Source: a virus. Taken from it: a stretch of 64,000 bases of DNA. The stretch is from IMG/VR virus record IMGVR_UViG_3300036045_000002, positions 16,086-80,085 of that record; one strand, given 5' to 3'. The translations under genes and the position numbers were made by a program. The notes beneath the pieces were generated by a model that worked only from the letters and a program-made list of their open reading frames with translations, had not been told where the DNA came from and searched no databases. This document shows positions 22,789-40,207 of this stretch, one piece after another; positions within the stretch are counted from its first letter, which is position 1, and the number at the start of each line of letters is the position of its first letter.

Positions 22789-22846
22789 TTGTAGTGGTTC
22801 GCGTAATTGCGTATGCTCACGCACGCTGGGCGCACGGCGCGCCCAG
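22789..22846 (+). promoter_or_regulatory. Sigma70-like promoter plus ACGGC-loop hairpin
   Basis: TTGTAG-17-TATGCT, then ctgggcgc-acggc-gcgcccag. Confidence 0.65.
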
Positions 22847-22899
22847 ACAAGGGCGCGAGACGCGCCAATCTAACCACAGAGTCCGTCGTGATTACGACC

Positions 22900-23157
22900 A
22901 TGTCCGAACACGAAATCTACCAGAACATCCTGGGGCCCGTGTACGAGCGCACCAAGAGCATGGCGGTCGCGCCCGACGAGGTGGACGAGATGGAGTGGTT
23001 CTGCAAGTGCGCCGACACGCCGGTCCAGCACGAGATGCACACGAGAGAGGCCGGGGGTCTCGTGGACGAGGTGATGTACGTCCTGGAGCACGGCTACCAG
23101 GCGTTGCTCGACATGGAGATGGAAGCCGCCTACGACCGATACTACAACTACAACTGA
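22900..23157 (+). CDS. Acidic hypothetical protein
   Basis: MSEHEIYQN...; first gene after the promoter (alternative GTG at 22888). Confidence 0.6.
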   Translation: MSEHEIYQNILGPVYERTKSMAVAPDEVDEMEWFCKCADTPVQHEMHTREAGGLVDEVMYVLEHGYQALLDMEMEAAYDRYYNYN

Positions 23158-23167
23158 GGAGAAGGTC

Positions 23168-23365
23168 ATGGAAGACTGCCAGCGATGCGAAGCCCTCAAG
23201 AGCGCAGGCAAGGTCCTGAGGTGCCGGAAGTGCCTGTTCGACCCGTTCTTCGAGGACGCGCCCCGAGCGCCCCGCGACGACATCGCAAACCCCGCGCCAG
23301 ATCGCGTAGCGTCGCGTCTGGCGCGTTTCCGCGACGCAGACGAGACGAGTCACACGTTCGCGTAG
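23168..23365 (+). CDS. Small Cys-containing protein
   Basis: GAGGAG RBS; CxxC...CxxC. Confidence 0.5.
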   Translation: MEDCQRCEALKSAGKVLRCRKCLFDPFFEDAPRAPRDDIANPAPDRVASRLARFRDADETSHTFA

Positions 23366-23394
23366 GTCGTCGATTCTACGCGATTCTAGAGCGT
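23284..23394. repeat. Dispersed palindromic TCTAGA element, copy A
   Basis: cgcaaaccccgcgccagatcgc...cgcgtctggcgcg...cgcgattctagagcg. Confidence 0.75.
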
Positions 23395-23400
23395 TCAGGA

Positions 23401-24417
23401 ATGAAACCGGTCGTCCTCTACTACCGTGGCCAGAAACTCACCATCAAAAGGAGTGACCTCGTGTCCAGGCGCAAGCAGACCACCCACCAGCAGGCCGTCG
23501 TCAAGACCATCAAGGCCATGTCCGGCGGGACGACCTTCGACAAGGTGCCGAAGGAGATGAAGCGCAACAACCTGCCAGGCCTCAGGTCCGAGGACAGCTT
23601 CTTCGGCGTGGTCAGGTCGTACTTCAAGTACCGCGACTACTCCGACCATACCGACCCGATGCCAGCACCGGAGGACACAAACGTCAGGTACACAGAGCCC
23701 GCACTCGACCAACCGGACGCGAAACCGATCACCCTGGCCCACCGCGAGTACCTGGACGAGAAGGACGACACCATCGTCCGGTGCACTGCGAACAAAATCG
23801 TGTCCAACTATGACGAACTGCCTCAGGACGTCCGCACACGGCTCAGGAACACCAAGGACGCGACGGCGATCAGACCTGAATTCCTAGACGGTGTGGTCGG
23901 GCCGTTATTCTACCGAACAATGGAACTCACCGCCGAGCACCTCTGGTCCGTCCGCCTCAACCCCAGCATCCCGCTGGGTATCGTCCTCGACTGGCTGGAG
24001 ACCAAGGAACTGCACTACGACCTGGAAGGGCACTTCGGGGCGACGGCAATGAGGGGCAAGAACGAGCAGGTAGTAAGGATTCACCTACTCCTGACCGTCC
24101 AGGTCCCGCCAGGAGGCGGCGGGAACGCACACCGGTTCCCGCCGAGGCTCACGGTGCAGGACGAGCAGGAACTCCTCGGCCTGATGAGGCACGTCTACCA
24201 CGAGATTTACAACGACGCGACCGAAATCAGCGAGGACGAAGAGTCCATTAAGTTCATGGTCCCGGACTACCTGGAAACGTACCACACCATCTACAACCAT
24301 CACCGGTATGCCAAACCCCAGGACAGGAAGGAGGCGTTCGACCGGAACCGCGAATTGACCGCGCTGTTCTTCAAACTTCCGCGTGACGTCCAAGACCGAC
24401 TCCTCAGGAGCATCTGA
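23401..24417 (+). CDS. Hypothetical protein
   Basis: Likely start MKPVVLYY immediately after the repeat element. Confidence 0.7.
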   Translation: MKPVVLYYRGQKLTIKRSDLVSRRKQTTHQQAVVKTIKAMSGGTTFDKVPKEMKRNNLPGLRSEDSFFGVVRSYFKYRDYSDHTDPMPAPEDTNVRYTEPALDQPDAKPITLAHREYLDEKDDTIVRCTANKIVSNYDELPQDVRTRLRNTKDATAIRPEFLDGVVGPLFYRTMELTAEHLWSVRLNPSIPLGIVLDWLETKELHYDLEGHFGATAMRGKNEQVVRIHLLLTVQVPPGGGGNAHRFPPRLTVQDEQELLGLMRHVYHEIYNDATEISEDEESIKFMVPDYLETYHTIYNHHRYAKPQDRKEAFDRNRELTALFFKLPRDVQDRLLRSI

Positions 24418-24614
24418 TGACCTGCGTCAACTGCAACCAGACCATTCTGAACCTGAAGACGCTGTACTGGCAACCAGGGATTTGCGGCCACTGGTTCATG
24501 GTCTGTCCGCACTGCCCGTTGACCGTACCGTGCCCGGTCTGCGCCGGAAAGCCTCTGGTGCAACTCGACCAGCCGACCGACGCCGACACCCCCACCATCG
24601 TCCAGGAGACCTGA
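24417..24614 (+). CDS. Small Cys-rich zinc-finger protein
   Basis: CVNC, CGH, CPHC, CPVC. Confidence 0.6.
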   Translation: MTCVNCNQTILNLKTLYWQPGICGHWFMVCPHCPLTVPCPVCAGKPLVQLDQPTDADTPTIVQET

Positions 24615-24616
24615 CC

Positions 24617-24886
24617 GTGTACAACGCGAAAAGACCGGCCGACATCGTCCACTGCCAGCTGTGCGGGAAGGTCGTGGAGACCGGAAACTGGACGGCAGTC
24701 CGATTCCACGAGTGCAAGCACCGGTTCTACTGCTGCTGGCAGTGCGCCGAGTCGCCGGACGGCGTGTGCCCGAAGTGCGTGCCGAAGGGCGAGCTGGACT
24801 CGGACGCGGACACGGTCGCCGAACCGACCCCGTTAGCGAAAGATTCCGCCGGGAACGCCTTGGGAAGCTCCGAGTCTGCCGAGTAG
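24617..24886 (+). CDS. Small Cys-rich zinc-finger protein
   Basis: GTG after AGGAGA; CQLC, CKH, CWQC, CPKC. Confidence 0.6.
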   Translation: MYNAKRPADIVHCQLCGKVVETGNWTAVRFHECKHRFYCCWQCAESPDGVCPKCVPKGELDSDADTVAEPTPLAKDSAGNALGSSESAE

Positions 24887-24939
24887 CGTCAACGTCGGGC
24901 GCTGTGCGCCCCGAGAGTCACACCGACCAGGAGTCCGTG

Positions 24940-25167
24940 ATGCCGAGAACGTCCGCCAGCCGCTACTGCCGCGTCTGCCGTAAGCCGATCCCCAAGGAGC
25001 GGATCGCGGCCCTCCCGCAAACCACGACGTGCGTGTTCTGCTCCGACGAGGAGCCGACGCAAGGGCTGATAGAGTTCGGCCACAAGACCGCGCCGAGCCT
25101 GGTGATCCTCCCGAACGACCCGGAACAGCGACGCCGCGCCCGGAGGAGTTTCCGGCGGGCCCGCTGA
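24940..25167 (+). CDS. TraR/DksA C4 zinc-finger protein
   Basis: CRVCRKPIPKERIAALPQTTTCVFC matches the DksA/TraR finger pattern. Confidence 0.8.
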   Translation: MPRTSASRYCRVCRKPIPKERIAALPQTTTCVFCSDEEPTQGLIEFGHKTAPSLVILPNDPEQRRRARRSFRRAR

Positions 25168-25186
25168 TTCGCAGCCGAGACCAACC

Positions 25187-25450
25187 GTGCCGAAGACCAG
25201 GAACAACGACGTTGAAGTCCTCGCCACCTGGCTGTGCGGGGCGAGCCTCCAGAAGCCGGACGGGTTCGACACCCTCCGGCAGATCGTCCGCCAGGCCGCG
25301 GTTGACGCGGCCGAGATGTACGCGGACGAAGGCGAACTGAAAGGGGACGAGGACGAGCCGGCCGACCCGCTCGGGGTGCGGGACATCGTCGCGAGGTTCG
25401 CGACGGCCCTGGACGAGGACAAACGGCTCCGGGACGAGGAGGAGGAGTGA
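25187..25450 (+). CDS. Acidic hypothetical protein
   Basis: 87 aa; operon spacing. Confidence 0.55.
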   Translation: MPKTRNNDVEVLATWLCGASLQKPDGFDTLRQIVRQAAVDAAEMYADEGELKGDEDEPADPLGVRDIVARFATALDEDKRLRDEEEE

Positions 25451-26881
25451 GTGGGCTACTTCTCACCGCAAGACGTGGCGAACGTCGCGCTCGACCATCT
25501 CAAGGAGAACAAGTACACCGACGACCAAAGGTACGGGCTGAACACCGGGCAACTCCACCGGGCCGTCGTCAACAAGGACCGGGACAAGTACCAGAACCTC
25601 GACCACGCCGAGTTCCGGGCCATAATGAACCGGCTGCACTCGGCGGGGGTCGTCAAGCGGAGTGGGACCGGGAAGTTCGTCTGGCAGATTAGGAAGGAGG
25701 CCCTCGACTGGAACCGGACGTGGCCGTTCAAGAAGCTACCGACCGCGCCGGGGAACGAGCCTCCGGCCTACACCAACCCGAAGACCCACACCCACGACCA
25801 TCACGGACACCCGAACTTCCAGGAGAATTTCGAGGACGAGAAGCCTCAGTCCCAGCCGCCTCCCGACCTGAGTCACGTCCACGACCTGCTCGGCAAGCTG
25901 GCCCTCAAGCTCGCGGAGCACGAGGCCGTCCTCCAGGGGATCGCGCCCGTCCTGGCGACGATCATGGCCGAGGTTCAGGGGTTGAAGGACAGGAAGGACT
26001 CCCACGTCAAGGTACTCAAGGTCGAACTGCCCAACGGGAAGACGGTCAAGCTCAAGGACGTCGTCCTCCCGCGGGTGTTCGACCGGGTGTTCTCGCTCGC
26101 TAGGTGCCGGCGGAACATCATGCTGTTCGGCCCGGCCGGGTGCGGGAAGACGTACCTGGCGAAACTGGTCGCGGACTCGCTCGGCCTGGACTTCGGGTCG
26201 GTGAGTTGCACGGCCGGGATGTCCGAGTCACACCTGCTCGGCCGCACCGTGCCAGACCTGACGAAGGGGGAGAACGTGTTCCAGGGGGCCGCGTTCCTGG
26301 ACTGCTACGAAAAAGGAGGGGTCTACCTGTTCGACGAACTGGACGCGGCCGACCCGAACCTGCTCCTGTGCGTCAACACGGCCCTGGCGAACGGGTACTG
26401 TAACGTCCCGAACCGGCGGAAGAAGCCGCGGGCCGACCGGCACGAGGACTTCGTGTGCGTCGGCACGGCGAACACCGTCGGGCGGGGGGCGACCCGCATG
26501 TACCAGGGCCGGAACCAGCTGGACGAGGCGACGCTCGACAGGTTCCGGATCGGCATGGTCGAGTGCGACTACGACCCGAGCGTAGAACTGGCCGTGTGTC
26601 CGGACATCGGCGGCGAGGAGGGCCGCGCCTGGAACCCGCCCCTCAGGCAGAACGGCCACGACAACACCGTAGGCAAGCTCGTGTCACTCGGGTACAACCT
26701 CCGGCAGACGTGCCAGTTCGTCCGGCACAAAATCGAGCAGACCGGGATGCGGCGGATCATGAGCACCCGGTTCCTGGAGGACGCCTACGTCATGATGTCG
26801 GCCGGAGGGTGGGACCTGAAGACGGTGTTGGAGGCGTATTTCGAGGGCTGGACACCTGAAGAGAAGGCGAAGGTGACGTGA
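25451..26881 (+). CDS. MoxR/CobS-like AAA+ ATPase
   Basis: Walker A GPAGCGKT, Walker B YLFDELD, 'TANT', 'RNQLDEATLDRF'. Confidence 0.85.
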   Translation: MGYFSPQDVANVALDHLKENKYTDDQRYGLNTGQLHRAVVNKDRDKYQNLDHAEFRAIMNRLHSAGVVKRSGTGKFVWQIRKEALDWNRTWPFKKLPTAPGNEPPAYTNPKTHTHDHHGHPNFQENFEDEKPQSQPPPDLSHVHDLLGKLALKLAEHEAVLQGIAPVLATIMAEVQGLKDRKDSHVKVLKVELPNGKTVKLKDVVLPRVFDRVFSLARCRRNIMLFGPAGCGKTYLAKLVADSLGLDFGSVSCTAGMSESHLLGRTVPDLTKGENVFQGAAFLDCYEKGGVYLFDELDAADPNLLLCVNTALANGYCNVPNRRKKPRADRHEDFVCVGTANTVGRGATRMYQGRNQLDEATLDRFRIGMVECDYDPSVELAVCPDIGGEEGRAWNPPLRQNGHDNTVGKLVSLGYNLRQTCQFVRHKIEQTGMRRIMSTRFLEDAYVMMSAGGWDLKTVLEAYFEGWTPEEKAKVT

Positions 26882-27159
26882 TGCAAGGGCCGATCACCAT
26901 GCACGAGATCAACCTGGACCCGCTTCCGACGCGGGAGGAAGTTCGCGCCTTCGTCAGGTCGCTGACCGACCAGGACCGGGACGACCTGAAGATGCGGGTC
27001 GAGTTCATGACGTACCAGGAGGTCGAGGACTGGCGGGCGAAGGCGGCGCGCGAGAAGGACAGGCCGGCCTACCTGAAGTCGCTGTACGTTTGCACGGCGA
27101 AGATGATGAAGGACGGCGTCGTGGTCGCGGTCATCGGCCTGGTCGAGGGCGACAGGTGA
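26878..27159 (+). CDS. Hypothetical protein
   Basis: 93 aa; coupled to neighbouring genes. Confidence 0.55.
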   Translation: MMQGPITMHEINLDPLPTREEVRAFVRSLTDQDRDDLKMRVEFMTYQEVEDWRAKAAREKDRPAYLKSLYVCTAKMMKDGVVVAVIGLVEGDR

Positions 27160-28055
27160 GGCACTTCATCGACCAGGAACTGAGGGGCCACGGGCTGATA
27201 TTCGACGGCCCCCTCGACCTCGTTACCAACGCGAAGGCGGCCTACCACCGGAAGCCGCTCGTGAAGAACCTGTCGGTCAACTGGCCCGGCCGGCGGGGCG
27301 ACGGGTGGGCGGACATGGAACGGTTCCTGCACAGTCCGTGGCCGGAAGGCGTCAAGATGGTCGAGTACGTGGTCGAAAGGATCAAGAAGACCGACCTGCC
27401 GATGCCGAAGGACGTCCGGAGGAAGCCTCGCTGGAGCGAGGACGACGGCGACGTGGACGTTGACCGGGTGCTCCGGGGCGAGGCGGACTACATGCGGGAC
27501 GTCCGGAGGCAGCGGGTGTCAGGCAGCTTCCAGGTCAGCCTGATATCGAACCTGGACTGCGGGCGAGGTCACCGGTGTAACCCGAGCGGCGTGTTCTTCC
27601 GGAGTGCCTGCTGCATCGCCCTCGCCGACGTCCTGGAGTCGATCGGCTACTCGGTCGAAATCTGGACGTGGACGCGAGGCACGCACGTCTTCCCGAAACC
27701 CAACCATCACCAGTTCGTCGCGTGCCGGCCGAAGCGGATGGGCGACCCGGTGGACTACGACGCCTTGTGCGACACCATGAGTTCCTGGTTCACGTCCAAG
27801 GCGACGTTCGGGGCGTTCGCGGCGAACCCGGTCGCCGCGCCCCTCGACTTGGGGTACCTGTGCGAGGCCGACTCCGGCACACTCCTGCTGTCCGAGTGCG
27901 GCATGGGCGGGTGGGAGAAACACCTAGACCTGGAGCAAGGCACGCTCCCGGTGTGTATTCCGCTCATCACCGGCTGGAGCCGGGAGGACGGCCTGGAGTC
28001 GGCGACGGAGAAGGCCCGCCTGGTACTCGACCACATCGTCCGGTCGCAGTCCTAG
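27156..28055 (+). CDS. CobT/vWA-like partner of the AAA ATPase
   Basis: GTG start overlapping the upstream stop; 'DGDVDVDRVLRGE', 'IALADVLESIGYSVEIW'; adjacent to the MoxR ATPase. Confidence 0.55.
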   Translation: MRHFIDQELRGHGLIFDGPLDLVTNAKAAYHRKPLVKNLSVNWPGRRGDGWADMERFLHSPWPEGVKMVEYVVERIKKTDLPMPKDVRRKPRWSEDDGDVDVDRVLRGEADYMRDVRRQRVSGSFQVSLISNLDCGRGHRCNPSGVFFRSACCIALADVLESIGYSVEIWTWTRGTHVFPKPNHHQFVACRPKRMGDPVDYDALCDTMSSWFTSKATFGAFAANPVAAPLDLGYLCEADSGTLLLSECGMGGWEKHLDLEQGTLPVCIPLITGWSREDGLESATEKARLVLDHIVRSQS

Positions 28056-28073
28056 GAAAAGATCGGTCGTCGC

Positions 28074-28134
28074 TTGCTCAGGTCTAACTGCGTCTCTATA
28101 CTGACGTTGTGGGGCGCACGGCGCGCCCCACAAC
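28074..28134 (+). promoter_or_regulatory. Sigma70-like promoter plus ACGGC-loop hairpin upstream of the nusG-like gene
   Basis: TTGCTC-17-TATACT, then gttgtggggcgc-acggc-gcgccccacaac. Confidence 0.75.
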
Positions 28135-28160
28135 TCCGTCACCCGAACCGAGAGTCCGTC

Positions 28161-29357
28161 ATGCCCGCGACCGAGACGACCCCCGTCGAGCGCTGCGAGT
28201 CTTGCCTGCAGCCGAACGCGACCTACCTGATGAAGTCGTTCCTGTCCGAGCGCCTCTGCCCGTTCTGCTTCAACCGCAAGAAGAACGGCGGCCCGCAGCC
28301 GCAGGTCGTCTACGTCCCGAGCAGCGAGGCGAACAAGGCCAGGTGCGAGGGGTGCCTGCTCGTCAAGCTCGTCCAGAACATGACGCTAGTGGACGGCCAG
28401 CACGTCTGCGCCGGCTGCGCCAAGGGGCTGTCGAAGAAGTGGTTCGCGGTCGCCGTCTCCGGCAGCGACAACAAGGTCAAGGCGAACATCCGCAAGCGGT
28501 TCCAGGCCCCCCACCTGGTCGGCAAGCTCGGCCGGGTCGTCATCCCGAAGCACAAGCAGGCCCGGACGACGAAGGACAGGTGGGAGGTGTACGCGGACGA
28601 GAGGCTGCTCGGCGTCGTGTCCGCGGCCGACCACGACCAGGCGATGTACGAGGCCCGGCTGAAATTCGAGCGGCCGAGGAAGAAGTCCGTGTACAAGCCC
28701 GAGGACGCGCAGGCCGGGGCCATGAGCGAGGTCAGGAAGGAGAAGCACGGCCGGCGGGTGTACTACGCGGCCTACGACGCCGACGGCAAGATGCTCGGCC
28801 GCGTCACGGGCCACAAGAACCAGGAGGTCGCGACCGTCGCCCTCACCGCGATGTACGGGCCGAAGGAGAAGGTCAACAAGAACCCGCGGGAGTCCGTGAC
28901 CGAGTACCACGTCGTCACCGACGTGAAGCTGGCCGTACACGGGGGGAGGACCGTCGTCCAGAATCAGCGGGCCATGCCCGGGTACCTGCTGGTCGAGTGC
29001 GAGGCCGACGACTGCGTGTTCAAGGAGATCAAGGACGTGTCGGGCGTGTACTCGCTGCTCCCGTTCTGGGAGGACATGAAGTACGACGACCTGGAAGAAG
29101 GCGAAGTCGTCCAGGGGGCCACGTCCCTGTCGAAGGCCGAGGTGGACGGGTGGGTCAAGCGGCCGGAGGACAAGCCCGTGGCGCTGGCCTACGCCGTGGG
29201 CGACGAGGTCACGCTCGGGGACGGGCCGATGAAGGGGACGAAGGTCAAGGTCGTCGCGATCACCGGGCACGTCATGGCCCCCGAGGTCAAGGTCTCGGCC
29301 ACGATCCTGGGCCGGGAGGTCGAGATCAAGGTCAAGCACACCGAGGTCCGCAAGTGA
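28161..29357 (+). CDS. nusG: NusG-family transcription elongation factor with N-terminal zinc fingers and a large NGN insertion
   Basis: NGN motifs 'KWFAVAV', 'VVIP', 'MPGYLLVE', 'IKDVSGV'; KOW 'VGDEVTLGDGPMKG...VKVSATILGREVEI'. Confidence 0.8.
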   Translation: MPATETTPVERCESCLQPNATYLMKSFLSERLCPFCFNRKKNGGPQPQVVYVPSSEANKARCEGCLLVKLVQNMTLVDGQHVCAGCAKGLSKKWFAVAVSGSDNKVKANIRKRFQAPHLVGKLGRVVIPKHKQARTTKDRWEVYADERLLGVVSAADHDQAMYEARLKFERPRKKSVYKPEDAQAGAMSEVRKEKHGRRVYYAAYDADGKMLGRVTGHKNQEVATVALTAMYGPKEKVNKNPRESVTEYHVVTDVKLAVHGGRTVVQNQRAMPGYLLVECEADDCVFKEIKDVSGVYSLLPFWEDMKYDDLEEGEVVQGATSLSKAEVDGWVKRPEDKPVALAYAVGDEVTLGDGPMKGTKVKVVAITGHVMAPEVKVSATILGREVEIKVKHTEVRK

Positions 29358-29384
29358 CGCGGGGCGCTTCGTCGCGCCGTCTGT

Positions 29385-29502
29385 GACCCAGCGCCAGATC
29401 GCACAGAATCGCGTCTGGCGCGAGGTCGTGTCGAAAGTGAAGTGCGTCACACTTTCGATACGGTCGTTGAACTGACGCGACTCTAGAGCGAAAGGGACTG
29501 CC
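29385..29502. repeat. Dispersed palindromic TCTAGA element, copy B
   Basis: gcgccagatcgcacagaatcgcgtctggcgcg...tcgaaagtg/cactttcga...cgcgactctagagcgaaagggactgcc-GTG. Confidence 0.8.
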
Positions 29503-30240
29503 GTGATTACCCTGTTCCAGTGCGACGCGCCGACCAGCGTCGCAGACCTCGCCGGCGTCGAAATCCCGGTCCCCCCGCACGCCGACCCGAACGAGTGGAC
29601 TGCCGGACTGCCTCACGCCGACGCGGGCAGGCACATGAACAAGGCGTTCAAGGCCCGCGGCTGGCGGGTCCTGGCCAGGAACTACGCCGTCAGCCCGAAC
29701 CAGGCCAACCTGGCCGCGTCCTTCACCGTCGTAGGTCCCGACCTCAGGTGTGCGCCCGGGTACCACGTCTCCGTCGGGTTCATGACCAACAACGAGCAAC
29801 GCCGGGCCCTGACCTTCTTCTACGGACTGACCGAGGCGACGCCGGACGGCCACGGCCTCGTACTAGGTCGGGTGAAGGCGGACGACAAGGCGTACTTCCA
29901 GGTCGCCGATTTCGGTCAGATGACCGACCAGACCTTGAACGACCTCCAACAACTGGTGGACGGTGGCTGGCAAAGACTGAAGGCCGCCCGAACCGTCGTC
30001 CTGACCGAGCCCGAGAGGTGCGACCTGACGATGCGGCCCTGCCGGCTACACCCGTACCACGGAAGGTTCCCGTGGGGCAAACTCGGGTACGTGGACAAGG
30101 TCTGGACCGAGATGCGGGAAGGCGGGGCCAAGGCGACGGCGTGGACGCTGTACCGGGCGTTCGCGGCCGTCGTCGCCACGAACCCGCCGTACTCCCAGAT
30201 GCTCCAGCTGGACGGCATCCGGACGGCGTTGACGGTTTGA
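29503..30240 (+). CDS. Hypothetical protein (possibly DUF932-like)
   Basis: 245 aa; C-terminal 'TAWTLYRAF' is reminiscent of that family. Confidence 0.55.
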   Translation: MITLFQCDAPTSVADLAGVEIPVPPHADPNEWTAGLPHADAGRHMNKAFKARGWRVLARNYAVSPNQANLAASFTVVGPDLRCAPGYHVSVGFMTNNEQRRALTFFYGLTEATPDGHGLVLGRVKADDKAYFQVADFGQMTDQTLNDLQQLVDGGWQRLKAARTVVLTEPERCDLTMRPCRLHPYHGRFPWGKLGYVDKVWTEMREGGAKATAWTLYRAFAAVVATNPPYSQMLQLDGIRTALTV

Positions 30241-30250
30241 GGAAATCAGG

Positions 30251-30278
30251 TTGACGCGCGGGGGGCGTCCAGTATGAT
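30251..30278 (+). promoter_or_regulatory. Sigma70-like promoter
   Basis: TTGACG-16-TATGAT. Confidence 0.5.
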
Positions 30279-30897: not shown

Positions 30898-31139
30898 AGG
30901 ACGGCAAGCCGAAGACCAGGCGCGACGCGGCCATCGACCACGTCGTCGCCAGGAGGTACCGGGGCCAGGTGTTGTCCGCCGCCGAGTGGGCGGAGGTCAG
31001 GCGGGTGCTGGGGGAGGTGTACGACCTGTACTTCGACCCGGTGCAGGTCGAACTCGTCATGAACGACCCCGGGCCGGACGCCCGCGAGACGAAGGAAGTC
31101 CTGGTGGAGATCCATAACTGGCTGGCAAGGTACAAGTAA
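30894..31139 (+). CDS. Hypothetical protein
   Basis: GTG overlapping the upstream stop; GAGG RBS. Confidence 0.55.
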   Translation: MKDGKPKTRRDAAIDHVVARRYRGQVLSAAEWAEVRRVLGEVYDLYFDPVQVELVMNDPGPDARETKEVLVEIHNWLARYK

Positions 31140-31186
31140 CCGTCATCCCGGGACCCTCCCGGAAACGGAGATAAGGAGAACGACCA

Positions 31187-31891: not shown

Positions 31892-31955
31892 CCTCGCGTT
31901 AAGACTAGGGAACGGCCGGACACCAACGGCCGTTCCAGCCTTTCAAGGTACCGAC

Positions 31956-32096
31956 ATGATCGCGTTCATCCGGCAGTTCTGGCGATTCTGGACGTGCTGT
32001 TACTGGTCGGAGCACTCGACCATCTACCACTGGAAGACCGGCGAGCACTGCTGGCGGTGTAAGCGGTGTAACACCATCTGGATGAAACTACCTTAA
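31956..32096 (+). CDS. 46-aa Cys/Trp-rich protein
   Basis: MIAFIRQFWRFWTCC...CWRCKRC. Confidence 0.45.
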   Translation: MIAFIRQFWRFWTCCYWSEHSTIYHWKTGEHCWRCKRCNTIWMKLP

Positions 32097-32106
32097 GGAG
32101 GCCATC

Positions 32107-32874: not shown

Positions 32875-32881
32875 CCGGCCG

Positions 32882-34306
32882 ATGCCCCCCAGAAAGAAAG
32901 CCTACCCGTACCAGAAGCGCGGGATCTGGAAGATCCATGCGTTCAAAGGCCGGGCCCTCCTGGCCGACGACATGGGACTCGGGAAGACCTTCCAGGCCCT
33001 CCAGTACGCGAAGGTCTTCCTCGACTCCGGCCCCGTCGTCGTCGTCTGCCCGGCCAGCGTCAAGTGGAACTGGCAGCGGGAGGCCGAGCAGGTCGGGTTC
33101 CTGACGCACGTCCTCGAACGCCGCCGGCCGCCGACGATGACCGGCAACCTGCTCCGACACCAGTCCAACACCGTCTACGTGGTTAACTATGACATCCTGG
33201 GTGACGGGGCCGAAGGTTCCCGTCACCCGACCTGGAATCACTTCCTGAAGGCCCTCAGGCCGAAACTCGTCCTCCTGGACGAGTGCCACTACCTCAAGTC
33301 CAGGGGGGCCAAGCGGACGAGGTGGGTCCGGCAACTCGTCCAGGACGTCGGGCAGGTCGTCGGCATGTCCGGCACGCCGATGACGAGCCGGCCTGCCGAA
33401 CTCTGGTCGGTGCTGAACATCCTGAGGCCGGACGAGTTCCCGGAGTTCGGCAAGTTCGCCAGGAGGTACTGCGCCCAGGAGTGGACGCCGTGGGGGATGA
33501 AGTACGGCGGGGCGAAGCGGCTGCCCGAACTCCACCGGCGGCTCAAAGGCGAACTGATGGTCAGACGCCGGAAGGCCGACGTCCTGGACGAGTTGCCGGC
33601 GAAGACCCGGGTCGTCGTCCCGGTAGACCTGCCGGACATGAGGCAGTATTTGGAGGCCGAGCGAGACCTGGTCCGGTGGCTCAGGAAGACGCACCCGGAC
33701 AAGCGGAAGGGATTCCGGAACTCGCAACGGATGGTCAGGTTCGGATACCTGAAACGGCTGATCGGGGAACTCAAACTCCCGGCCGTGAAGCAGTGGGTCG
33801 AGGACTTCCTAGGCGGGTCGGACGGCAAGCTCATCGCGTTTGCCGTCCACAAGAAGGTCGTGGGGCCGCTGGTCGAGACGTTCAAGAGGTGCGCCGTCAA
33901 GGTGGACGGGTCCGTCACCGGGCGGGCCAGGCAGGCCACGTTCGACCGGTTCACGGCGAACGACGCCGTCCGGCTGCTCGTCGGCAATGTCCAGGCGGCC
34001 GGGGTCGGCTGGAACGGCCAGGTGGCCAACTCGGTCGTGTTCGCCGAGTTCGGCCTGACGCCGGGGGAGCACACCCAGGCCGAGGACCGGGCCCACCGGA
34101 TGGGCCAGAAGAAGCCGGTGACCATCTACTACCTGGTGGCCAGAGGCACCATCGAGGAAGACCTGGTCAGAAAGGTCCAGCGGAAGCAGCAAGTCCTGGA
34201 CGAGGCCCTGGACGGCGACAAGGCCGTGGACGGATTCGACATCCTGGACGACCTGGAGGCGAAACTACTCAAGCGAGGAGGGAGACGTGGCCGTAAGAAA
34301 CCCTGA
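32882..34306 (+). CDS. SNF2-family helicase (HARP/SMARCAL1-like)
   Basis: 'LLADDMGLGKT', 'DECH', 'SGTP', 'QAEDRAHRMGQ'. Confidence 0.9.
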   Translation: MPPRKKAYPYQKRGIWKIHAFKGRALLADDMGLGKTFQALQYAKVFLDSGPVVVVCPASVKWNWQREAEQVGFLTHVLERRRPPTMTGNLLRHQSNTVYVVNYDILGDGAEGSRHPTWNHFLKALRPKLVLLDECHYLKSRGAKRTRWVRQLVQDVGQVVGMSGTPMTSRPAELWSVLNILRPDEFPEFGKFARRYCAQEWTPWGMKYGGAKRLPELHRRLKGELMVRRRKADVLDELPAKTRVVVPVDLPDMRQYLEAERDLVRWLRKTHPDKRKGFRNSQRMVRFGYLKRLIGELKLPAVKQWVEDFLGGSDGKLIAFAVHKKVVGPLVETFKRCAVKVDGSVTGRARQATFDRFTANDAVRLLVGNVQAAGVGWNGQVANSVVFAEFGLTPGEHTQAEDRAHRMGQKKPVTIYYLVARGTIEEDLVRKVQRKQQVLDEALDGDKAVDGFDILDDLEAKLLKRGGRRGRKKP

Positions 34307-34502
34307 CCAGCAACACACCCGCACGTTCGTCGGCGGGACGGGCACCCTGTACGTCAGGGGGCTCTCGAAACTCATCCGGGACAAGTTCCACGCGGCCTGC
34401 CTGATGCGGGGCCGGACGATGAAAGGCGTCCTGGAGGAGTTCATGCGGGACTACGCCCGCCAGGCCGAGACCGTCCAACGGCACAAGAGGAAGAAGAAAT
34501 GA
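34287..34502 (+). CDS. Small ribbon-helix-helix-like DNA-binding protein
   Basis: 'TLYVRGLSKLIRDKFHAAC..RGRTMKGVLEEFMRDY'. Confidence 0.55.
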   Translation: MAVRNPDQQHTRTFVGGTGTLYVRGLSKLIRDKFHAACLMRGRTMKGVLEEFMRDYARQAETVQRHKRKKK

Positions 34503-35377
34503 CGTTCGACCAGCTGATGCGCGACCTCGGCGTGGAGGTCAGGCGGCACGGCGAGCACCACCACACCACGTCCGGGTGGGTCAACATCGACTGCCCGTTC
34601 TGCTCGCCGAAGGAGAGGCGGTTCCGACTGGGGTACAACCCGCGGGGCGGGTACTGCTCGTGCTGGACGTGCGGGCCGAAGAACGTCCACGCCGTCGTCA
34701 TGGAACTGACCGGCAAGCCTTACGGCCAAGTCCGGCTCGTGGTCGGCGACCTGGAGAGGACGGTCGTCAAGGACGACATCAGGCCGGAAGGCAAGCTCGT
34801 CGAGCCGAAAGGCGTCGGCCGGCTGCTCACCCCCCACCGGGAGTACCTGAGGCACCGGGGGTTCGACCCGGAGTCGGTGGAAAGGCTGTGGGACGTCCGG
34901 GGGACCGGGATGTTCTGCGACCTGCCGTGGCGGCTGTACATTCCGGTCAAGTACCAGGACGAGACGGTCTCGTGGACGACGCGGGCCTGCTCGGACAGCG
35001 CCAAGACGCGGTACCTGTCGGCCGCGCCAGACCAGGAGAAGGTGCCGTTGAAGTCCATGCTGTACGGCGAGGACTACGTGGTCAACGCGGTCGTCGTGGT
35101 CGAGGGTCCTCTGGACGTGTGGCGGATCGGCCCGGGGGCGGTCGCGACGTGCGGGACGGCGTTCTCCAAGGCCCAGGTTCTCCGGCTGTCGAGATTCCCC
35201 GTCCGGGCCGTCTGTTTCGACTCCGACCGGGCCGCCCAGGCGCGGGCGAAGAAGCTGGCCGATCAACTGGACGTGTTCGACGGTAAGACGTGCGTCGTCC
35301 GCCTCCAGACCGGCAAGGACGCGGCCGAAGCGTCCTCGAAAGAAATCGCCAAACTTCGCCGTCGTTTTCTCGATTGA
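34499..35377 (+). CDS. DNA primase (zinc finger + TOPRIM)
   Basis: CPFC...CWTC; 'VVVEGPLD'; 'CFDSD'. Confidence 0.88.
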   Translation: MTFDQLMRDLGVEVRRHGEHHHTTSGWVNIDCPFCSPKERRFRLGYNPRGGYCSCWTCGPKNVHAVVMELTGKPYGQVRLVVGDLERTVVKDDIRPEGKLVEPKGVGRLLTPHREYLRHRGFDPESVERLWDVRGTGMFCDLPWRLYIPVKYQDETVSWTTRACSDSAKTRYLSAAPDQEKVPLKSMLYGEDYVVNAVVVVEGPLDVWRIGPGAVATCGTAFSKAQVLRLSRFPVRAVCFDSDRAAQARAKKLADQLDVFDGKTCVVRLQTGKDAAEASSKEIAKLRRRFLD

Positions 35378-35432
35378 ACAGGACGACATCGCGCCTGTAT
35401 GCTGACGCGATGTCGTCGCACGGCGCGACGAC
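35374..35432 (+). promoter_or_regulatory. Sigma70-like promoter plus ACGGC-loop hairpin
   Basis: TTGAAC-18-TATGCT, then gtcgtcgc-acggc-gcgacgac. Confidence 0.65.
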
Positions 35433-35455
35433 GCACACACACGAGAGATCGCGAC

Positions 35456-35950
35456 GTGAGCAGCACAGACACAGTACGCGCAAGCACAACGGACCCCAAT
35501 CGTGACGCACTCGGCGCAGGACTCCGGACGAGACAGCATTTCGTCCACTGCGCCGTCAAATCACTCGGTCACGCAGCGCTCCAGGAGATTGCGAAGCGGG
35601 CGCAGGAGATCGCGACGCAAGCCGGCTACGAATTCAACGACAAGACGTTCTCGCCTCAATCGACCAGGACAGCACTGGTCGAGATGCGAGGTAAGGAGTT
35701 CGTCCGGCAGTCTGACGACGGGACCTGGACGTTGACTGATCTGGCGCAGGAAGTGATCGACTCGCCGGAGAAAGACGGACGACAATCGCTATCCAGTTAC
35801 AGGAAGCCGGAGATCGGGTCGAAGCGGCTCATGACCATCGACGACAAGGGACGCGTCCTCATCTCCGGCTTCAACGGCGCATTGGTCGAGGTCGAGTACG
35901 TCTCGGAGAACGAAGTCCGGATCCGGAAGGTCAGAATCGTCCCGATCTGA
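35456..35950 (+). CDS. Winged-helix protein with a C-terminal AbrB/MraZ-like motif
   Basis: 'FVRQSDDGTWTLT'; 'TIDDKGRVLI'; likely GTG start at 35456. Confidence 0.6.
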   Translation: MSSTDTVRASTTDPNRDALGAGLRTRQHFVHCAVKSLGHAALQEIAKRAQEIATQAGYEFNDKTFSPQSTRTALVEMRGKEFVRQSDDGTWTLTDLAQEVIDSPEKDGRQSLSSYRKPEIGSKRLMTIDDKGRVLISGFNGALVEVEYVSENEVRIRKVRIVPI

Positions 35951-35974
35951 CACTCACTACCAAAGGAGTCCGTC

Positions 35975-36499
35975 GTGGCCAAAAGAGTCGTCACCACCCG
36001 GTCGAACTACCAGAAGTGGGTCCTGAAACAGTTCGACCTGCACTTCGGCCGGACGCCGGAGCAGAACGACTTCTGGCGAACGGTATACGACAAGTACGTC
36101 CCTCCGCACGACGTCCTCCGGCTGTCCAGGACGTCGGCCGCCTGCGACAAGAACACGAAAGGCGTTCTAGTCCTGCACTGGCACGCATTCTCGGTGATGT
36201 TCGACCCGAAACTGGAACTCGAATTACAGGTCTCCGGCGAGTATTTCCGGGAGGACGTTCGTGCCGTCGCGATAGTGGACAGAGGAGTCACGGTCGGTTA
36301 CTACCGCGAGCCGGTCCTTGTCGCGAGCCGGGCCTACCATCCAGACTACCGACTGAAACACGTCAAGTTCGGCGTCATGCTGGACTGGTTTCAGGACCTG
36401 GATTGCGAAGTCCGGTTCGAGGAATACAAGGACGACAACTTCCACTTCGAGGCGACCGGCAACCATCACTTCTACGTCGAAGTACCTCGGAAAGACTGA
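35975..36499 (+). CDS. Hypothetical protein
   Basis: AAGGAGTCCGTC leader; 174 aa. Confidence 0.65.
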   Translation: MAKRVVTTRSNYQKWVLKQFDLHFGRTPEQNDFWRTVYDKYVPPHDVLRLSRTSAACDKNTKGVLVLHWHAFSVMFDPKLELELQVSGEYFREDVRAVAIVDRGVTVGYYREPVLVASRAYHPDYRLKHVKFGVMLDWFQDLDCEVRFEEYKDDNFHFEATGNHHFYVEVPRKD

Positions 36500-36554
36500 C
36501 TCGCATTCGCGGCGCTCGACGCGCCCCACACCTGTCTTCCTTTCGCACAGAATT

Positions 36555-36638
36555 GCGCCAGATCGACGACCGCCGTCAGAGACGAGACTTTTCTCAGACT
36601 GAGTACGGTCGTCGATTGTACGCGATTCTAGAGCGAAA
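36555..36638. repeat. Dispersed palindromic TCTAGA element, copy C
   Basis: gcgccagatcg...cggtcgtcgattgtacgcgattctagagcgaaa. Confidence 0.7.
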
Positions 36639-36798
36639 CGGACCTGCGTCCGACAAAACTTCCGGCGATAATCACGTCCGGCGCGCGTGGGATAGGCGGG
36701 GGTCATGTCCCGCCGACAAGCGACTTTCACCAGGGTCGCTTCCCACGCACCTTTTTCCTTCCTGCCTCTGGTGACCACCGCGCCGGTGGAGTTTTACC

Positions 36799-38076
36799 AT
36801 GCCTGACGCTCGCTCGTCCGATCAATCCGTTCCGTCCTCCACCTCGATCCTCGACGCCTTCAACTGGCGTGGAGTCTGGACGCCTGGAGAGGTCATCGCC
36901 CTCCTCATCGACGGCGTCCTCAATCCTACCGAGGTCATGCTCCTCAGCCTGATCGAGTCGGCCGTCAAAGTCCGGGGGGAAGGGTGCTGGATCAGCAACA
37001 ACACGTTCGCGAAGGCACTCGGCCTCGCCAACAAGGCGAACGTGAACCGGATGATCCGGAAACTGAAGAAGCTCGACCTCGTCTACGAAGTCGGCTACGT
37101 CATGAAGAACAACTTGCGGCTGCGGGTCCTCCGAACCCGCCTGCCGGAGTGTCGAGAAATCGGTAAGGGGGACAGCTTTAAAGCTCACCCCCGGACAGCT
37201 TTAAAGCTGGCCGACTCTTCACTACGTTCAGAGATTAAAAAATACGTGGCTCCCTCCGGAGAGCCACGGATCGGGGAGAAACCTGCCTTGTCTGGTCAAT
37301 TCATACCTGAACTGGAAAACACCGGTAAAGGTAAGGGGCCATCGGAAAAGTGGGACAACTGGTGTGCCATGAGGTTGCGCGACTGCGCCGCGAACGCGAC
37401 CAAGATTTCGAGGAAATACGTCCTTTCGGCCGAAGGGAAGCACTTCCGGATGTTGCGCAAGGACCTCGGTGACGACCGAAACCGGATCGAGCGCGTCCTC
37501 GACTTCTATTGCGTCCAGATAGGACGGCCTTTCGTCCCCGACGTCCAGAACGCGAAAACGTTCCGGAGGAAGTGGACCCAACTCGAAGCCGCGTACCAAA
37601 GGTACCTCAAGAACAACCCCGACGTCCAGATTACCGACGAAGCGCACTCCGTTGTCAAGCACTACCTGTTCGGCCTGAACTGGCCGAAGGGAAGCGCGAC
37701 CAAACTTCTGCCGGCCGTCCAGGTGATGCTGGACAGGTATCGTGACTTCCGGGCCAAGCTCCGGGCCTACAAGGAGACCCGCCCCGAGTGGATCAAGGTC
37801 GGCAAGAACACCGTCCAAAACGCCCCCAAGCACCACGCCCTCGCCCACTTCCTGAGCAAGGCGCTGTCGTCTGTTGACTTCTTCGTCGGTCGCTGGTTCG
37901 CCGACCTGTACCAGCGGGTCGTTAACTGGCCGAAGTGGCACGGCAACCTGATGTCGGACGTGTGGAACGGCGACCCCAAGGACCAGAAGTTCGGCAAGGC
38001 TGTTTTGTCCCACTGCCAGACTTGGGGCGACCGGGTGTCCGAGGCGTGGGGCGTCCTGTCCCAGGAGTTGTCATGA
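36799..38076 (+). CDS. Replication initiator-like protein (N-terminal HTH)
   Basis: 'GCWISNNTFAKALGL..ANVNRMIRKLKKLDLV' HTH; upstream of the helicase. Confidence 0.7.
   Translation: MPDARSSDQSVPSSTSILDAFNWRGVWTPGEVIALLIDGVLNPTEVMLLSLIESAVKVRGEGCWISNNTFAKALGLANKANVNRMIRKLKKLDLVYEVGYVMKNNLRLRVLRTRLPECREIGKGDSFKAHPRTALKLADSSLRSEIKKYVAPSGEPRIGEKPALSGQFIPELENTGKGKGPSEKWDNWCAMRLRDCAANATKISRKYVLSAEGKHFRMLRKDLGDDRNRIERVLDFYCVQIGRPFVPDVQNAKTFRRKWTQLEAAYQRYLKNNPDVQITDEAHSVVKHYLFGLNWPKGSATKLLPAVQVMLDRYRDFRAKLRAYKETRPEWIKVGKNTVQNAPKHHALAHFLSKALSSVDFFVGRWFADLYQRVVNWPKWHGNLMSDVWNGDPKDQKFGKAVLSHCQTWGDRVSEAWGVLSQELS
37170..37208. repeat. Two 16-bp direct repeats, each with a palindromic core (candidate origin iterons)
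   Basis: GGACAGCTTTAAAGCT at 37170 and 37193; AT-rich 'attaaaaaata' just downstream. Confidence 0.65.
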
Positions 38077-39482
38077 TCGTCCAGACCCGCGACAGCGTGA
38101 CCGAGCGAACGGTACTGACCGGCATGATCGTTAACACCGAGGTGCTCGGCAGGTTGAGCCCCAAGTGGACCAAGGACGGGCTGTTCTCGTCCGACTGGTC
38201 GAACGTCGTCGCCGGCTGGTGCGTCCGGTACTACGGGAAGTACGGCAAGGCCCCGGAGAAGGCGGTCGAGACCCTGTTCGCCAGTTGGGCCGACGGCCGG
38301 AACGACCGGGAAACGGTGAAACTGGTCGAACGGTACCTGTCGTCCTTGTCCGGCCAGTACCAGAGGACCAAGAAGAAGATCAACCCGGCCTACGTCCTCG
38401 ACCTGGCCGGCGACCATTTCAACGCCGTCCGGTTGAAAAGGCTCGCGGACGCACTCGCCGGGGACATCGACGCCGGGAAAGTCCAGGACGGCTGGAAGCG
38501 GATCGACAAGCTCGGCCGGGTCGAAGTCGGCGTCGGGGCGAGGATCGACGTCCTCCAGAACAAGGCCGCCATGAGGGCCGCGTTCGAGGACGCGAAGTCC
38601 GACGTCCTGGTGAAATACCCCGGGGCCCTCGGCCGGTTCTTCGGCGGGGCGCTTGAGCGGGAAGGATTCGTGGCCTTCATGGGGCCGGAGAAGCGCGGGA
38701 AGACCTGGTGGCTCCTCGACCTGGCCTGGCGGGCCATGCTCCAGAGGAAGCGGGTGGCGTTCTTCGAGGTCGGCGACCTGTCGGAACGGCAGATCCTCAG
38801 GCGATTCGGCGTCCGGGCGGCCGGGAGGCCGATGAAGCCTACGCCCGCCGGGCGGGTGGTCAACTATCCGACCAAACTAGTCCGGAAGGACGACGCCGCG
38901 TTCGACGTGGTCCACGACCCGCGGACGTACAAGGACTGGCTGACCTGGCCAGTCCTCGACAAGGCCATGAAGAAGGTCATGCTCGACCGGGTCAAGTCGA
39001 AGGAGTCCTATTTGGGTCTTTCCGTCCATGCCAACTCCAGTATTTCCGTAGGAGGCATCCGGACGACACTGCGGGAGTGGGAGACGACCGGATGGCGTCC
39101 CGAGGTCGTGGTCATCGACTACGCGGACATCCTCGCCCCACCCGCGGGGTTTCAGGGGGAGTCGCGGGACGCGGTCAATGAAACGTGGAAGGCCCTCCGG
39201 CGGATGTCCCAGGAACTCCACTGCCTGGTGGTCACGGCCACACAGGCGAACGCCATGAGCTACACGGCCGATTCCTTGTCCATGCAGAACTTCAGCGAAG
39301 ACAAGCGGAAGTTCTCCCACGTCACCGGAATGGTCGGCATCAACCAGAGCAACCCGGAGAAGGAGAAGGGGGTACAGCGGTTGAACTGGCTCGTCCTGCG
39401 GGAGGACGAATTCCTGGTTCAAGATCACGTCCTGGTCGCCGGGTGCCTCGCGGTCGCCAACCCGGCGGTGTGCAGTGCCTGA
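38073..39482 (+). CDS. DnaB-like replicative helicase
   Basis: Walker A 'GPEKRGKT', 'VVVIDYAD', 'VVTATQAN'. Confidence 0.85.
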   Translation: MIVQTRDSVTERTVLTGMIVNTEVLGRLSPKWTKDGLFSSDWSNVVAGWCVRYYGKYGKAPEKAVETLFASWADGRNDRETVKLVERYLSSLSGQYQRTKKKINPAYVLDLAGDHFNAVRLKRLADALAGDIDAGKVQDGWKRIDKLGRVEVGVGARIDVLQNKAAMRAAFEDAKSDVLVKYPGALGRFFGGALEREGFVAFMGPEKRGKTWWLLDLAWRAMLQRKRVAFFEVGDLSERQILRRFGVRAAGRPMKPTPAGRVVNYPTKLVRKDDAAFDVVHDPRTYKDWLTWPVLDKAMKKVMLDRVKSKESYLGLSVHANSSISVGGIRTTLREWETTGWRPEVVVIDYADILAPPAGFQGESRDAVNETWKALRRMSQELHCLVVTATQANAMSYTADSLSMQNFSEDKRKFSHVTGMVGINQSNPEKEKGVQRLNWLVLREDEFLVQDHVLVAGCLAVANPAVCSA

Positions 39483-39521
39483 GTTCACCTGCCAATGCCT
39501 GTGAATTCCTGCCAACCTAGA

Positions 39522-39589
39522 TTGAACAGGACGTCGCGGATCGCGTAGTCTGACGCTGCGATCTCTCGCACGTCGCGAGACGACGCAGC
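39522..39589 (+). promoter_or_regulatory. Sigma70-like promoter plus ACGTC-loop hairpin
   Basis: TTGAAC-18-TAGTCT, then tctcgc-acgtc-gcgaga inside an outer gctgcg/cgcagc stem. Confidence 0.6.
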
Positions 39590-40179: not shown

Positions 40180-40207
40180 ACCATACCTACTTACCAAGGA
40201 GTCCGTC

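Follow-up and report, generated by a model that had tools for sequence, protein, structure and literature searches.

Why should four gene blocks of one phage genome each begin with a promoter-like element that is followed, at a near-constant distance, by a small hairpin carrying nearly the same loop? The genome is an IMG/VR phage record of 80,085 bp (99% complete), of which a 64-kb stretch of 64,000 nucleotides, here called the window, was analyzed. The phage belongs to a lineage without a cultured relative, and its TerL has only 34–42% identity to the best match in a deposited phage genome. Four co-directional blocks in its early arm are each headed by one promoter and hairpin module; all four modules are intergenic and lie in leaders, 35–65 nt upstream of start codons, and the coding strand carries every copy, in the same orientation relative to transcription. 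The module is real and kept by selection, and its hairpins most likely tag new transcripts for a phage factor, the leading candidate for which would be a NusG-like protein encoded behind the second module. The elements are the following:

22789..22817, plus strand: site 1 promoter-like element (−35 at 22789–22794, 17-nt spacer, −10 at 22812–22817; TTG / TA..CT pattern)
22826..22846, plus strand: site 1 hairpin, perfect 8-bp stem, loop ACGGC at 22834–22838 (−17.1 kcal/mol, z −3.7)
22852..22866, plus strand: second small hairpin of the site 1 leader, 6-bp stem, 3-nt loop
28074..28102, plus strand: site 2 promoter-like element (−35 at 28074–28079, 17-nt spacer, −10 at 28097–28102)
28106..28134, plus strand: site 2 hairpin, perfect 12-bp stem, loop ACGGC at 28118–28122 (−25.8 kcal/mol, z −5.6)
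35374..35403, plus strand: site 3 promoter-like element (−35 at 35374–35379, 18-nt spacer, −10 at 35398–35403)
35412..35432, plus strand: site 3 hairpin, perfect 8-bp stem plus one U·G pair, loop ACGGC at 35420–35424
39522..39551, plus strand: site 4 promoter-like element (−35 at 39522–39527, 18-nt spacer, −10 at 39546–39551)
39555..39589, plus strand: site 4 hairpin, 6-bp core stem at 39564–39580, loop ACGTC at 39570–39574 (−22.5 kcal/mol, z −3.8), the stem extending to 14 pairs with two bulges
41698..41714, plus strand: candidate fifth, degenerate member, 6-bp stem, loop ACGTT, in the gap before a 305-aa gene
22693..22721, minus strand: better-consensus sigma70-like promoter (10/12) without hairpin, facing the small-terminase gene
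30251..30278, plus strand: better-consensus sigma70-like promoter (10/12) without hairpin, before a sigma-like gene
28161..29357, plus strand: gene for the 398-aa NusG paralog, first gene past site 2

The promoter hexamers and spacers that the initial annotation had proposed at 22789, 28074, 35374, and 39522 were each found where quoted. Singly the hexamers are weak, with 7–8 of 12 positions matching the E. coli consensus, which is why a consensus scan did not list the four promoters; their promoter status rests on the common TTG / TA..CT pattern, the spacing, and the position. The −35 box of site 3 overlaps the Toprim/primase stop codon, and the site 4 promoter lies 40 nt past the DnaB-like helicase gene. 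Since the two stronger promoters carry no hairpin, the hairpin marks a subset of promoters and is not a generic promoter property. The same annotation had put the loop start 16–19 nt after the −10 box, and at sites 1 to 4 the loop begins at the 17th, 16th, 17th, and 19th base past it, respectively. The stem begins 3–8 nt past the −10 box in all four sites (3 nt at site 2), so that the predicted +1, ~7 nt past the box, would precede the stem by 0–3 nt or lie barely within it. No recognizable promoter accompanies the candidate fifth member.

This register bears on the possibility that the hairpins are U-less terminators or 3′-end stabilizers of the upstream operon that overlap the next promoter by accident. 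Each hairpin does lie at the end of a gene block, and there is no other terminator between the blocks, but the hairpins stand downstream of the −10 box in a fixed register with a conserved apex, the real terminators of the genome carry U-tracts (e.g., 19420–19455), and there is no co-directional operon upstream of site 1; we consider this explanation very improbable. Three other roles were dropped. Hairpin promoters of the N4 type were set aside, as no RNA polymerase family match was found in the scanned proteins (the largest ORFs encode 1038, 913, and 730 aa, the last a ribonucleotide reductase); stems of 6–12 bp are too short for RNase III processing sites; and complementarity of the loop to start-codon regions extends over 5 nt only.

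The four hairpins share an 11-nt apex, consisting of CGC, the 5-nt loop (ACGGC or ACGTC), and GCG, that is invariant at 43 of 44 positions. This core occurs five times in the window against 0.33 expected, a count reached by none of 100 shuffles, and the whole 80,085-bp record contains no further copy; the fifth match (35143, minus strand, intragenic), which lacks a stem, is taken as chance. It had been claimed that the loop is closed by CGC/GCG and that the outer stems differ yet still pair, and this is what we found: the stems have 8, 12, 8, and 6 bp and their outer pairs covary. In a loop-anchored alignment of the four hairpins, 81% of cells are paired, and in 8 of 12 pairs both partners have changed; no shuffle out of 500 reached any of these measures, and every slid register scored lower. 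The inner pairs are fixed while the outer pairs are replaced compensatorily, whereas under selection for pairing alone the inner pairs, too, should have drifted. The fixed apex together with the covarying outer stems supports an element that would act as a folded single strand rather than as an ordinary pair of operator half-sites. The four canonical stems do not separate RNA from DNA, since they are pure Watson–Crick and have equal energies in sense and antisense. At the gathering score, Rfam gave no matches in the 64-kb window, and the flanks of the four hairpins contain no linear motif common to all. A 130-nt "element B" comes after three of the four modules.

A DNA operator, named in the initial annotation as the alternative, is weakened by the stem covariation and is carried here as an unlikely rival. 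It would place a phage protein, either the winged-helix/AbrB-like product of 35456–35950 or the HTH_36 protein of 36799–38076, on the 11-bp core (a CGC-N5-GCG dyad) over +1, where it would block or tune the four promoters. Several features suit such a binder: +1 to ~+25 is a classic repressor position, the core has short dyad symmetry, the −10 boxes are bracketed by inverted repeats (12 bp at site 3, 35382–35393 with 35406–35417), and the 35456–35950 product looks DNA-binding by eye. In the relative G006, paired GGCGCC palindromes occur at matching places (52 versus ~20 expected, clustered in the early region), and the loop seems inverted in G006 and in another relative, L173. A duplex binder, however, gives no reason why 3–9 unrelated flanking bp should stay complementary at each site; the loop is asymmetric and its four copies share one orientation relative to transcription; G·U pairs in relatives favor one strand; and, of the candidate binders, only HTH_36 is conserved in G006 or in a third relative, G001.

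The claim that one copy sits directly before a nusG-like gene proved correct for site 2, whose downstream gene encodes a true member of the NusG family by Pfam (NusG, 9e-7), by a match to phrog_6386 ("antiterminator"), and by fold (top Foldseek matches Thermotoga and Aquifex NusG, E 1e-10). The protein carries two Cys4 ribbons at its N-terminus, together with an NGN domain interrupted by ~110 inserted aa and a KOW domain. Its family is small, with 17 full-length representatives (E<1e-28). Searches of viral, metagenome, and genome contigs and of GenBank phages with the single paralog or with a 3-sequence alignment (A1) returned no match; wider alignments recovered G006 and L173. The family-encoding contigs found are those of this phage, G001, G006, and L173, and in all four a pentaloop hairpin shortly behind a promoter-like site leads the operon of the NusG paralog.

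At the level of sequence the relatives are more varied. G006 is syntenic with the early arm and has hairpins at matching places: the 7-bp stem of one, with loop ACGUC, has exactly the sequence of the site 2 inner stem, a second small hairpin similar to that of the site 1 leader follows the counterpart of the site 1 hairpin, and a promoter and a hairpin with loop ACGUC occupy the syntenic place of the candidate fifth member. G001 and G006 agree in the −35 hexamer (TTGTCG) and in the loop (AUAGG), although the stems, which start 7–10 nt past the −10 box, are unrelated. Owing to G·U pairs, the asymmetric hairpins of the relatives fold better on the sense strand than on the antisense strand (−18.7/−13.8, −17.2/−15.5, and −18.1/−14.8 kcal/mol). 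Loops vary by site in G006 and G001 (AUAGG, GCUGU, ACUGU, ACGUC, and GCGUU), so one strictly sequence-specific reader cannot explain the whole family. The loop GCUGU, at the G006 position orthologous to site 1, resembles the complement of the loop of this phage, which hints at a DNA-level or loop-indifferent function. A covariance model, R1, recovered nothing in this genome beyond the four copies on which it was trained (its next match, at 16.6 bits, is a true terminator) and nothing in 78 related loci gathered as DnaB relatives; in G006 it gave marginal matches. An exact-pattern scan of IMG/VR with the −10 tail plus core gave >119 matches, just two with stems of at least 7 bp; none had promoter context, and they were judged chance rather than copies of the module. 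When the DnaB-relative loci were screened by a crude automatic criterion for hairpins close behind promoters, no enrichment appeared (4 of 44 against 9.6% at random positions; 20 on the plus and 16 on the minus strand), but this test is insensitive, as its criteria missed even site 4 and the G001 and G006 sites.

As the best explanation we tentatively propose, at somewhat less than an even chance, that a promoter-fused 5′ RNA hairpin is read by a phage factor, most likely the NusG paralog. The module would combine a promoter of host type (sigma70 family) with a hairpin placed right at the 5′ start of the nascent RNA. Pairing would suffice for the stem, and the apex, with its three closing G-C pairs and loop ACG(G/U)C, would be read sequence-specifically by a trans-acting factor, which would single out the four early or middle operons as a common regulon. 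The likeliest reader would be the Zn-ribbon NusG paralog of the phage itself, which, like LoaP, would be caught by its hairpin in the nascent RNA and would then travel with RNA polymerase to give processivity through the long co-directional early arm; the 5′-terminal position probably would also shield the transcripts from 5′-end-dependent decay. In the dfn and mln operons of Bacillus velezensis, a small 5′ leader RNA hairpin bound by LoaP is required for antitermination (PMC12691694). The likeness extends to a specialized NusG paralog encoded next to its target; however, the LoaP hairpin has a UNCG tetraloop and is embedded in a long leader, with a NusA-dependent terminator after it, whereas here the loop has 5 nt, the hairpin stands at the predicted 5′ end in promoter register and in 4–5 copies, no terminator was found, and the protein has two Zn ribbons and an NGN insert.

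The modules also resemble the nutL and nutR boxB sites of lambda N, a pentaloop on a short G-C stem in early-operon leaders, with one copy immediately preceding the gene of the regulator itself. The boxB copies of lambda differ from each other at the fourth loop position, which is also the sole variable loop position here. Unlike the hairpins, nut sites are not tied to promoter register, and in this phage no boxA was identified and no downstream terminators were found; the sole small protein with a basic N-terminus (P0004, 39611–39949), considered as an N-like protein, was rejected for want of a homolog in G006 or G001. RfaH at ops and Bacteroides UpxY at opsX provide a further parallel, in that a short mini-hairpin of G-C pairs in the operon leaders loads a NusG paralog; at opsX, a pause hairpin in the nascent RNA is combined with one in the non-template DNA (PMC11685472). 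No ops or opsX sequence occurs in the four leaders (ops consensus as in PMC11685472), nor did a pause consensus emerge, and the ops-like part of the earlier proposal, non-template DNA in the bubble, could fit the 11-nt apex only, as stems of 21–35 nt exceed the transcription bubble. It counts against an RNA-loaded reader that the known NusG paralogs other than LoaP load on non-template DNA (PMC11685472).

The proposal of a loading signal is supported in part: the folded element, the NusG-family membership of the protein, and the architecture in relatives speak for it, whereas a single loop-specific reader for the whole family, terminators downstream, and a full ops fit are not supported. Canonical terminators downstream of the sites and U-tract terminators within the four operons were absent, which counts against antitermination; on the plus strand the four leaders contain no terminator-like site, the only structure seen being a weak U-poor hairpin at 31909–31936. 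The hairpin is missing from the late (structural) arm, the part of the genome in which antitermination might have been anticipated.

Loading of the nut, ops, or LoaP type does not require a position so strictly at the predicted 5′ end, which is a better fit to 5′-end protection. It is possible, if on the unlikely side, that the hairpin is purely a 5′-terminal stabilizer, 0–3 nt from +1, which would leave no single-stranded 5′ end to RppH, RNase E, or RNase J and would need no reader, the fixed apex then being a favored stable cap or a relic of module duplication. The stabilizing effect of 5′-terminal base pairing is established, RppH needing at least two unpaired 5′ nucleotides, and the ompA and papA leader stabilizers likewise have a hairpin a few nucleotides from the 5′ end, as predicted here (PMC3997798). 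The stem lies at or beside the predicted +1 in this phage and in G001 and G006, and loops vary freely among the relatives. But the ompA and papA stabilizers act by structure alone, and stability does not demand that the apex be held nearly invariant in four copies while the outer pairs are wholly turned over, nor that the AUAGG loop be kept in G001 and G006 despite unrelated stems; moreover, a hairpin is lacking at two strong promoters of this phage.

A conserved apex in fixed register with the promoter would also suit a hairpin that needs no phage protein and acts on RNA polymerase itself, through sigma release and promoter escape or through put-like processivity. The put RNA of HK022, two specific stem-loops of ~70 nt, modifies polymerase directly and renders it processive, and it resembles the modules as a promoter-proximal structured RNA of early phage operons. 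The site 1 leader and its G006 counterpart have two consecutive hairpins past the promoter, as put does, but sites 2–4 have a single one, no sequence or Rfam relation was found, the likeness is one of position only, and a sigma-dependent pause element (a −10-like hexamer) was not seen in the initially transcribed regions of the four sites. We regard such direct action as improbable.

A more specific form of the NusG reading, which we consider doubtful, extends it to a clade of uncultured phages of ~80 kb, in which a promoter-locked pentaloop would capture the Zn-ribbon NusG paralog and define a LoaP- or N-like processivity regulon of four to five operons that includes the regulator's own gene. 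Loop and protein would co-evolve, giving ACGKC here and AUAGG in G001 and G006, and element B could be the barrier that is overcome.

Specialized NusG paralogs are known to load by non-template DNA (RfaH, UpxY) or by one leader RNA hairpin (LoaP). If the reading proposed here is true, a phage NusG whose multi-operon regulon is addressed through a 5′ hairpin locked to the promoter would represent a novel means of targeting RNA polymerase, and the 11-nt apex and one protein would make a compact, portable pair of parts. Even as a mere stabilizer or operator, the hairpin defines an early regulon and the likely transcription units of this phage lineage.

Reading of the leader sequences found all four promoter and hairpin modules of this phage exactly as the initial annotation had described them, each with an 11-nt core (CGC, a 5-nt loop, GCG) behind its promoter boxes:

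-35 box at 22789, plus strand: site 1, loop ACGGC, 8-bp stem
-35 box at 28074, plus strand: site 2, loop ACGGC, 12-bp stem
-35 box at 35374, plus strand: site 3, loop ACGGC, 8-bp stem
-35 box at 39522, plus strand: site 4, loop ACGTC, 6-bp stem

A genome scan for perfect hairpins with 5-nt loops recovered the four sites with these stem lengths, and ACGGC was the only loop occurring three times. The core is 15-fold over-represented and was not found elsewhere in the 80,085-bp genome. When the sites were aligned on the loop, the loop and three closing pairs proved fixed in all four and pairs 4 to 8 varied on both sides, bearing out the claim that the outer stems differ and still pair; the covariation values of the real alignment were matched by no shuffle and no slid register. 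Folding z-scores were -3.7 for site 1, -5.6 for site 2, and -3.8 for site 4, where a longer hairpin of 14 pairs forms around two bulges. The hairpin at 41698-41714 (loop ACGTT) is a possible fifth member that lacks a promoter. An apex that stays fixed while its stems covary freely marks a hairpin that is read by something; boxB, the LoaP hairpin, and the operators of phage coat proteins are examples.

The boxes common to sites 1 to 4 are TTG, a 17-18-nt spacer, and TA..CT, then (G/C)ACG. Taken singly they are weak consensus matches, unlisted by a generic promoter scan; they are credible as promoters because they are jointly conserved in register with the hairpin. Two promoters that match the consensus at 10/12 positions, at 30251 (before the sigma-like gene) and at 22721 on the minus strand (facing the terminase genes), have no hairpin. 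The hairpins lie 35-65 nt from the start codon and leave the ribosome-binding sites uncovered. Site 3 and the primase stop codon overlap, site 4 is 40 nt past the helicase gene, and no terminator was found between the gene blocks, so read-through transcripts would also carry the element internally. A rival reading takes the hairpins themselves to be terminators of a U-less kind. At site 3, a perfect 12-bp inverted repeat (35382-35417) brackets the -10 box, and since its 3' arm has 6 nt in common with the hairpin 5' arm, the two would compete, be it in DNA or in read-through RNA. The bracketing repeat is 6 bp long at site 4; the inverted repeats of sites 1 and 2 measure 4-5 bp and may be due to chance.

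The window covers bases 16086-80085 of an IMG/VR record (80,085 bp) rated 99% complete. The GC content is ~65%. Close relatives among deposited phages are lacking: Megablast returned no hits, and the best matches of the large terminase (TerL) to deposited phages were 34-42% identical. Before ~22.65 kb the genes form a minus-strand arm, and a plus-strand arm runs from 22.9 kb to the record end, wrapping into the first 6 kb of the record:

20149-21888, minus-strand arm: TerL
21890-22654, minus-strand arm: HTH small-terminase-like gene
Plus-strand arm: DksA/TraR zinc-finger protein, AAA_5 ATPase, DUF7192 protein
Plus-strand arm: NusG paralogue and a protein with sigma-70 region 2
Plus-strand arm: dCTP deaminase, SNF2 helicase, Toprim primase, HTH_36 protein, DnaB-like helicase
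Plus-strand arm, after the DnaB-like helicase: queuosine-type, replication, and nucleotide-metabolism genes

Within the minus-strand arm, a canonical intrinsic terminator at 19420-19455 (10-bp stem and CTTTTT) closes a small island of plus-strand genes at 18.6-19.4 kb, which shows that U-tract terminators are used by this genome. The minus strand carries a strong terminator-like hairpin at 37245-37268, with a 10-bp stem and then a T-run, within the plus-strand ORF 36799-38076 at a local GC dip of 59%; together hairpin and dip suggest an inserted or antisense unit. The 650-bp noncoding stretch 18000-18660, dense in recurring words that resemble TGCGTGCGCA and GTCTAGAC, is a possible origin or operator cluster; one 14-nt word of it (18392-18413) reappears in the promoter 1 spacer (22798-22819). 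Several early genes share a translation-start context, (A/G)GAGTCCGTC with GTG or ATG immediately after it (22869-22890, 28150-28163, 35956-35977, 40189-40210).

A second conserved noncoding element of ~130 nt, element B, is present in four copies (23270-23420, 29367-29510, 36510-36665, and 46925-47060). Its 23-nt core, containing TCTAGAGCG, occurs 4 times versus 0 expected, and conserved long-range pairing joins an upstream AGAATCGCG segment with the core. Hairpin promoters 1 to 3 are followed, 0.5-1.3 kb downstream and just past the first gene or genes, by three of the copies, and in two copies the 3' end provides the ribosome-binding site of the next gene. Element B could serve the phage sigma-like factor as a middle promoter, act as a translational operator, or be the barrier overcome by the hairpin system.

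The NusG paralogue encoded first after site 2 (398 aa, 28161-29357, plus strand) has two Cys4 ribbons, a split NGN domain, and a KOW domain, the NGN domain being interrupted by a ~110-aa insert of two beta-beta-beta-alpha units. Its structure model (mean pLDDT 78) best matched Thermotoga and Aquifex NusG, each of which also has an NGN insert, with RfaH and Spt5 lower in the match list. The family is small, with 17 full-length representatives (E<1e-28) among 1.84 billion cluster representatives. Among the contigs examined, three others encode it: G001 (77 kb, GC 44%), G006 (80,131 bp with terminal repeats, GC 50%), and L173, a 1.9-kb fragment. Contig G014 has a shorter NusG-like gene without such a promoter-hairpin leader, and no family match came from 27 further contigs belonging to the same helicase or terminase clade. 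The early arm of G006 is syntenic with that of this phage at 30-57% protein identity, and the leaders compare as follows:

Leading the NusG-paralogue operon, this phage: site 2, loop ACGGC
Same place, G006: -35 TTGTCG, 17-nt spacer, -10 box, 8 nt, 5-bp stem, loop AUAGG
Same place, G001: -35 TTGTCG, 16-nt spacer, -10 box, 7 nt, unrelated 7-bp stem, loop AUAGG
Same place, L173: 6-bp stem with loop GCUGU behind a -10-like box
After the helicase gene: site 4 in this phage; in G006 a stem of 10 bp, two of them G.U, with loop ACUGU; in G001 a 6-bp stem, loop GCGUU
Before the 305-aa gene homologue, this phage: the fifth candidate, loop ACGTT
Same place, G006: promoter and a stem with 7 bp identical to the site 2 inner stem, loop ACGUC, U.G closing
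Divergent region, this phage: site 1
Same place, G006: promoter and GCUGU-loop hairpin, with a second small hairpin after it
Same place, G001: -35 TTGACT, 17-nt spacer, -10-like TAGAAA, 9 nt, 6-bp stem, loop ACAGU

One small ORF separates the hairpin from the NusG-paralogue gene in G001 and L173. In none of the three genomes compared (this phage, G006, and G001) does a strong hairpin closely follow the promoter of the sigma-like gene: this phage has none there, and the other two have only weak or distant stems. Judged from sequence, the promoter-hairpin architecture is conserved, as is the set of places bearing it. The loop sequence, by contrast, is uniform in this phage only. The palindrome GGCGCC has 52 copies in the 80 kb of G006 (L169-L170) versus ~20 expected; they cluster in the early region (~15.9-20.5 kb) and are often paired 1-7 nt apart, in hairpin stems as well, and part of this cluster may be coding (Gly-Ala codons). 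A ~45-nt repeated block with the 11-nt core, followed by variable sequence, was found within and between unrelated viral contigs of IMG/VR that a pattern scan had picked up (L049, L052, L065, L076, L083, and L108); this possible diversity-generating-retroelement-like repeat was judged unrelated to the modules described here.

Whether the hairpin acts as RNA or, in a rival reading, as a DNA operator is not informed by the stems of sites 1 to 4, because they hold only Watson-Crick pairs and have the same energy in sense and antisense orientation. G.U pairs, present in the fifth candidate and in two hairpins of G006, stabilize the sense strand by 1.7-4.9 kcal/mol, and this asymmetry favors sense RNA as the acting form. 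A counterpoint is that the loop GCUGU of G006 and L173 resembles the complement of this phage's loop; it carries little weight, as the chance of such a 4-of-5 match is estimated at ~0.2 and few hairpins were compared. Assuming a start ~7 nt past the -10 box, the stem would begin at +3 at sites 1 and 3; the DNA palindrome of sites 2 and 4 would have its first three base pairs before +1, and the RNA there would therefore begin already paired. In either case the hairpin would open the predicted RNA. Protection of the 5' end (PMC3997798) accounts better for this 5'-terminal register and may be an added or even ancestral role of the hairpin.

Only some promoters bear the hairpin, and in relatives it sits at the same syntenic ones, which speaks for regulation over a generic property. 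We tentatively read it, at somewhat under an even chance, as an RNA signal recognized by a phage factor acting on transcription; a polymerase-directed RNA is the rival in which polymerase itself would be the target. The leading candidate reader, though a doubtful one, would be the NusG paralogue, because its gene is present in every genome showing the architecture, because its own operon is always hairpin-led in the contigs examined, and because of the precedent of LoaP, a Bacillus velezensis NusG paralogue that binds a small leader RNA hairpin (PMC12691694).
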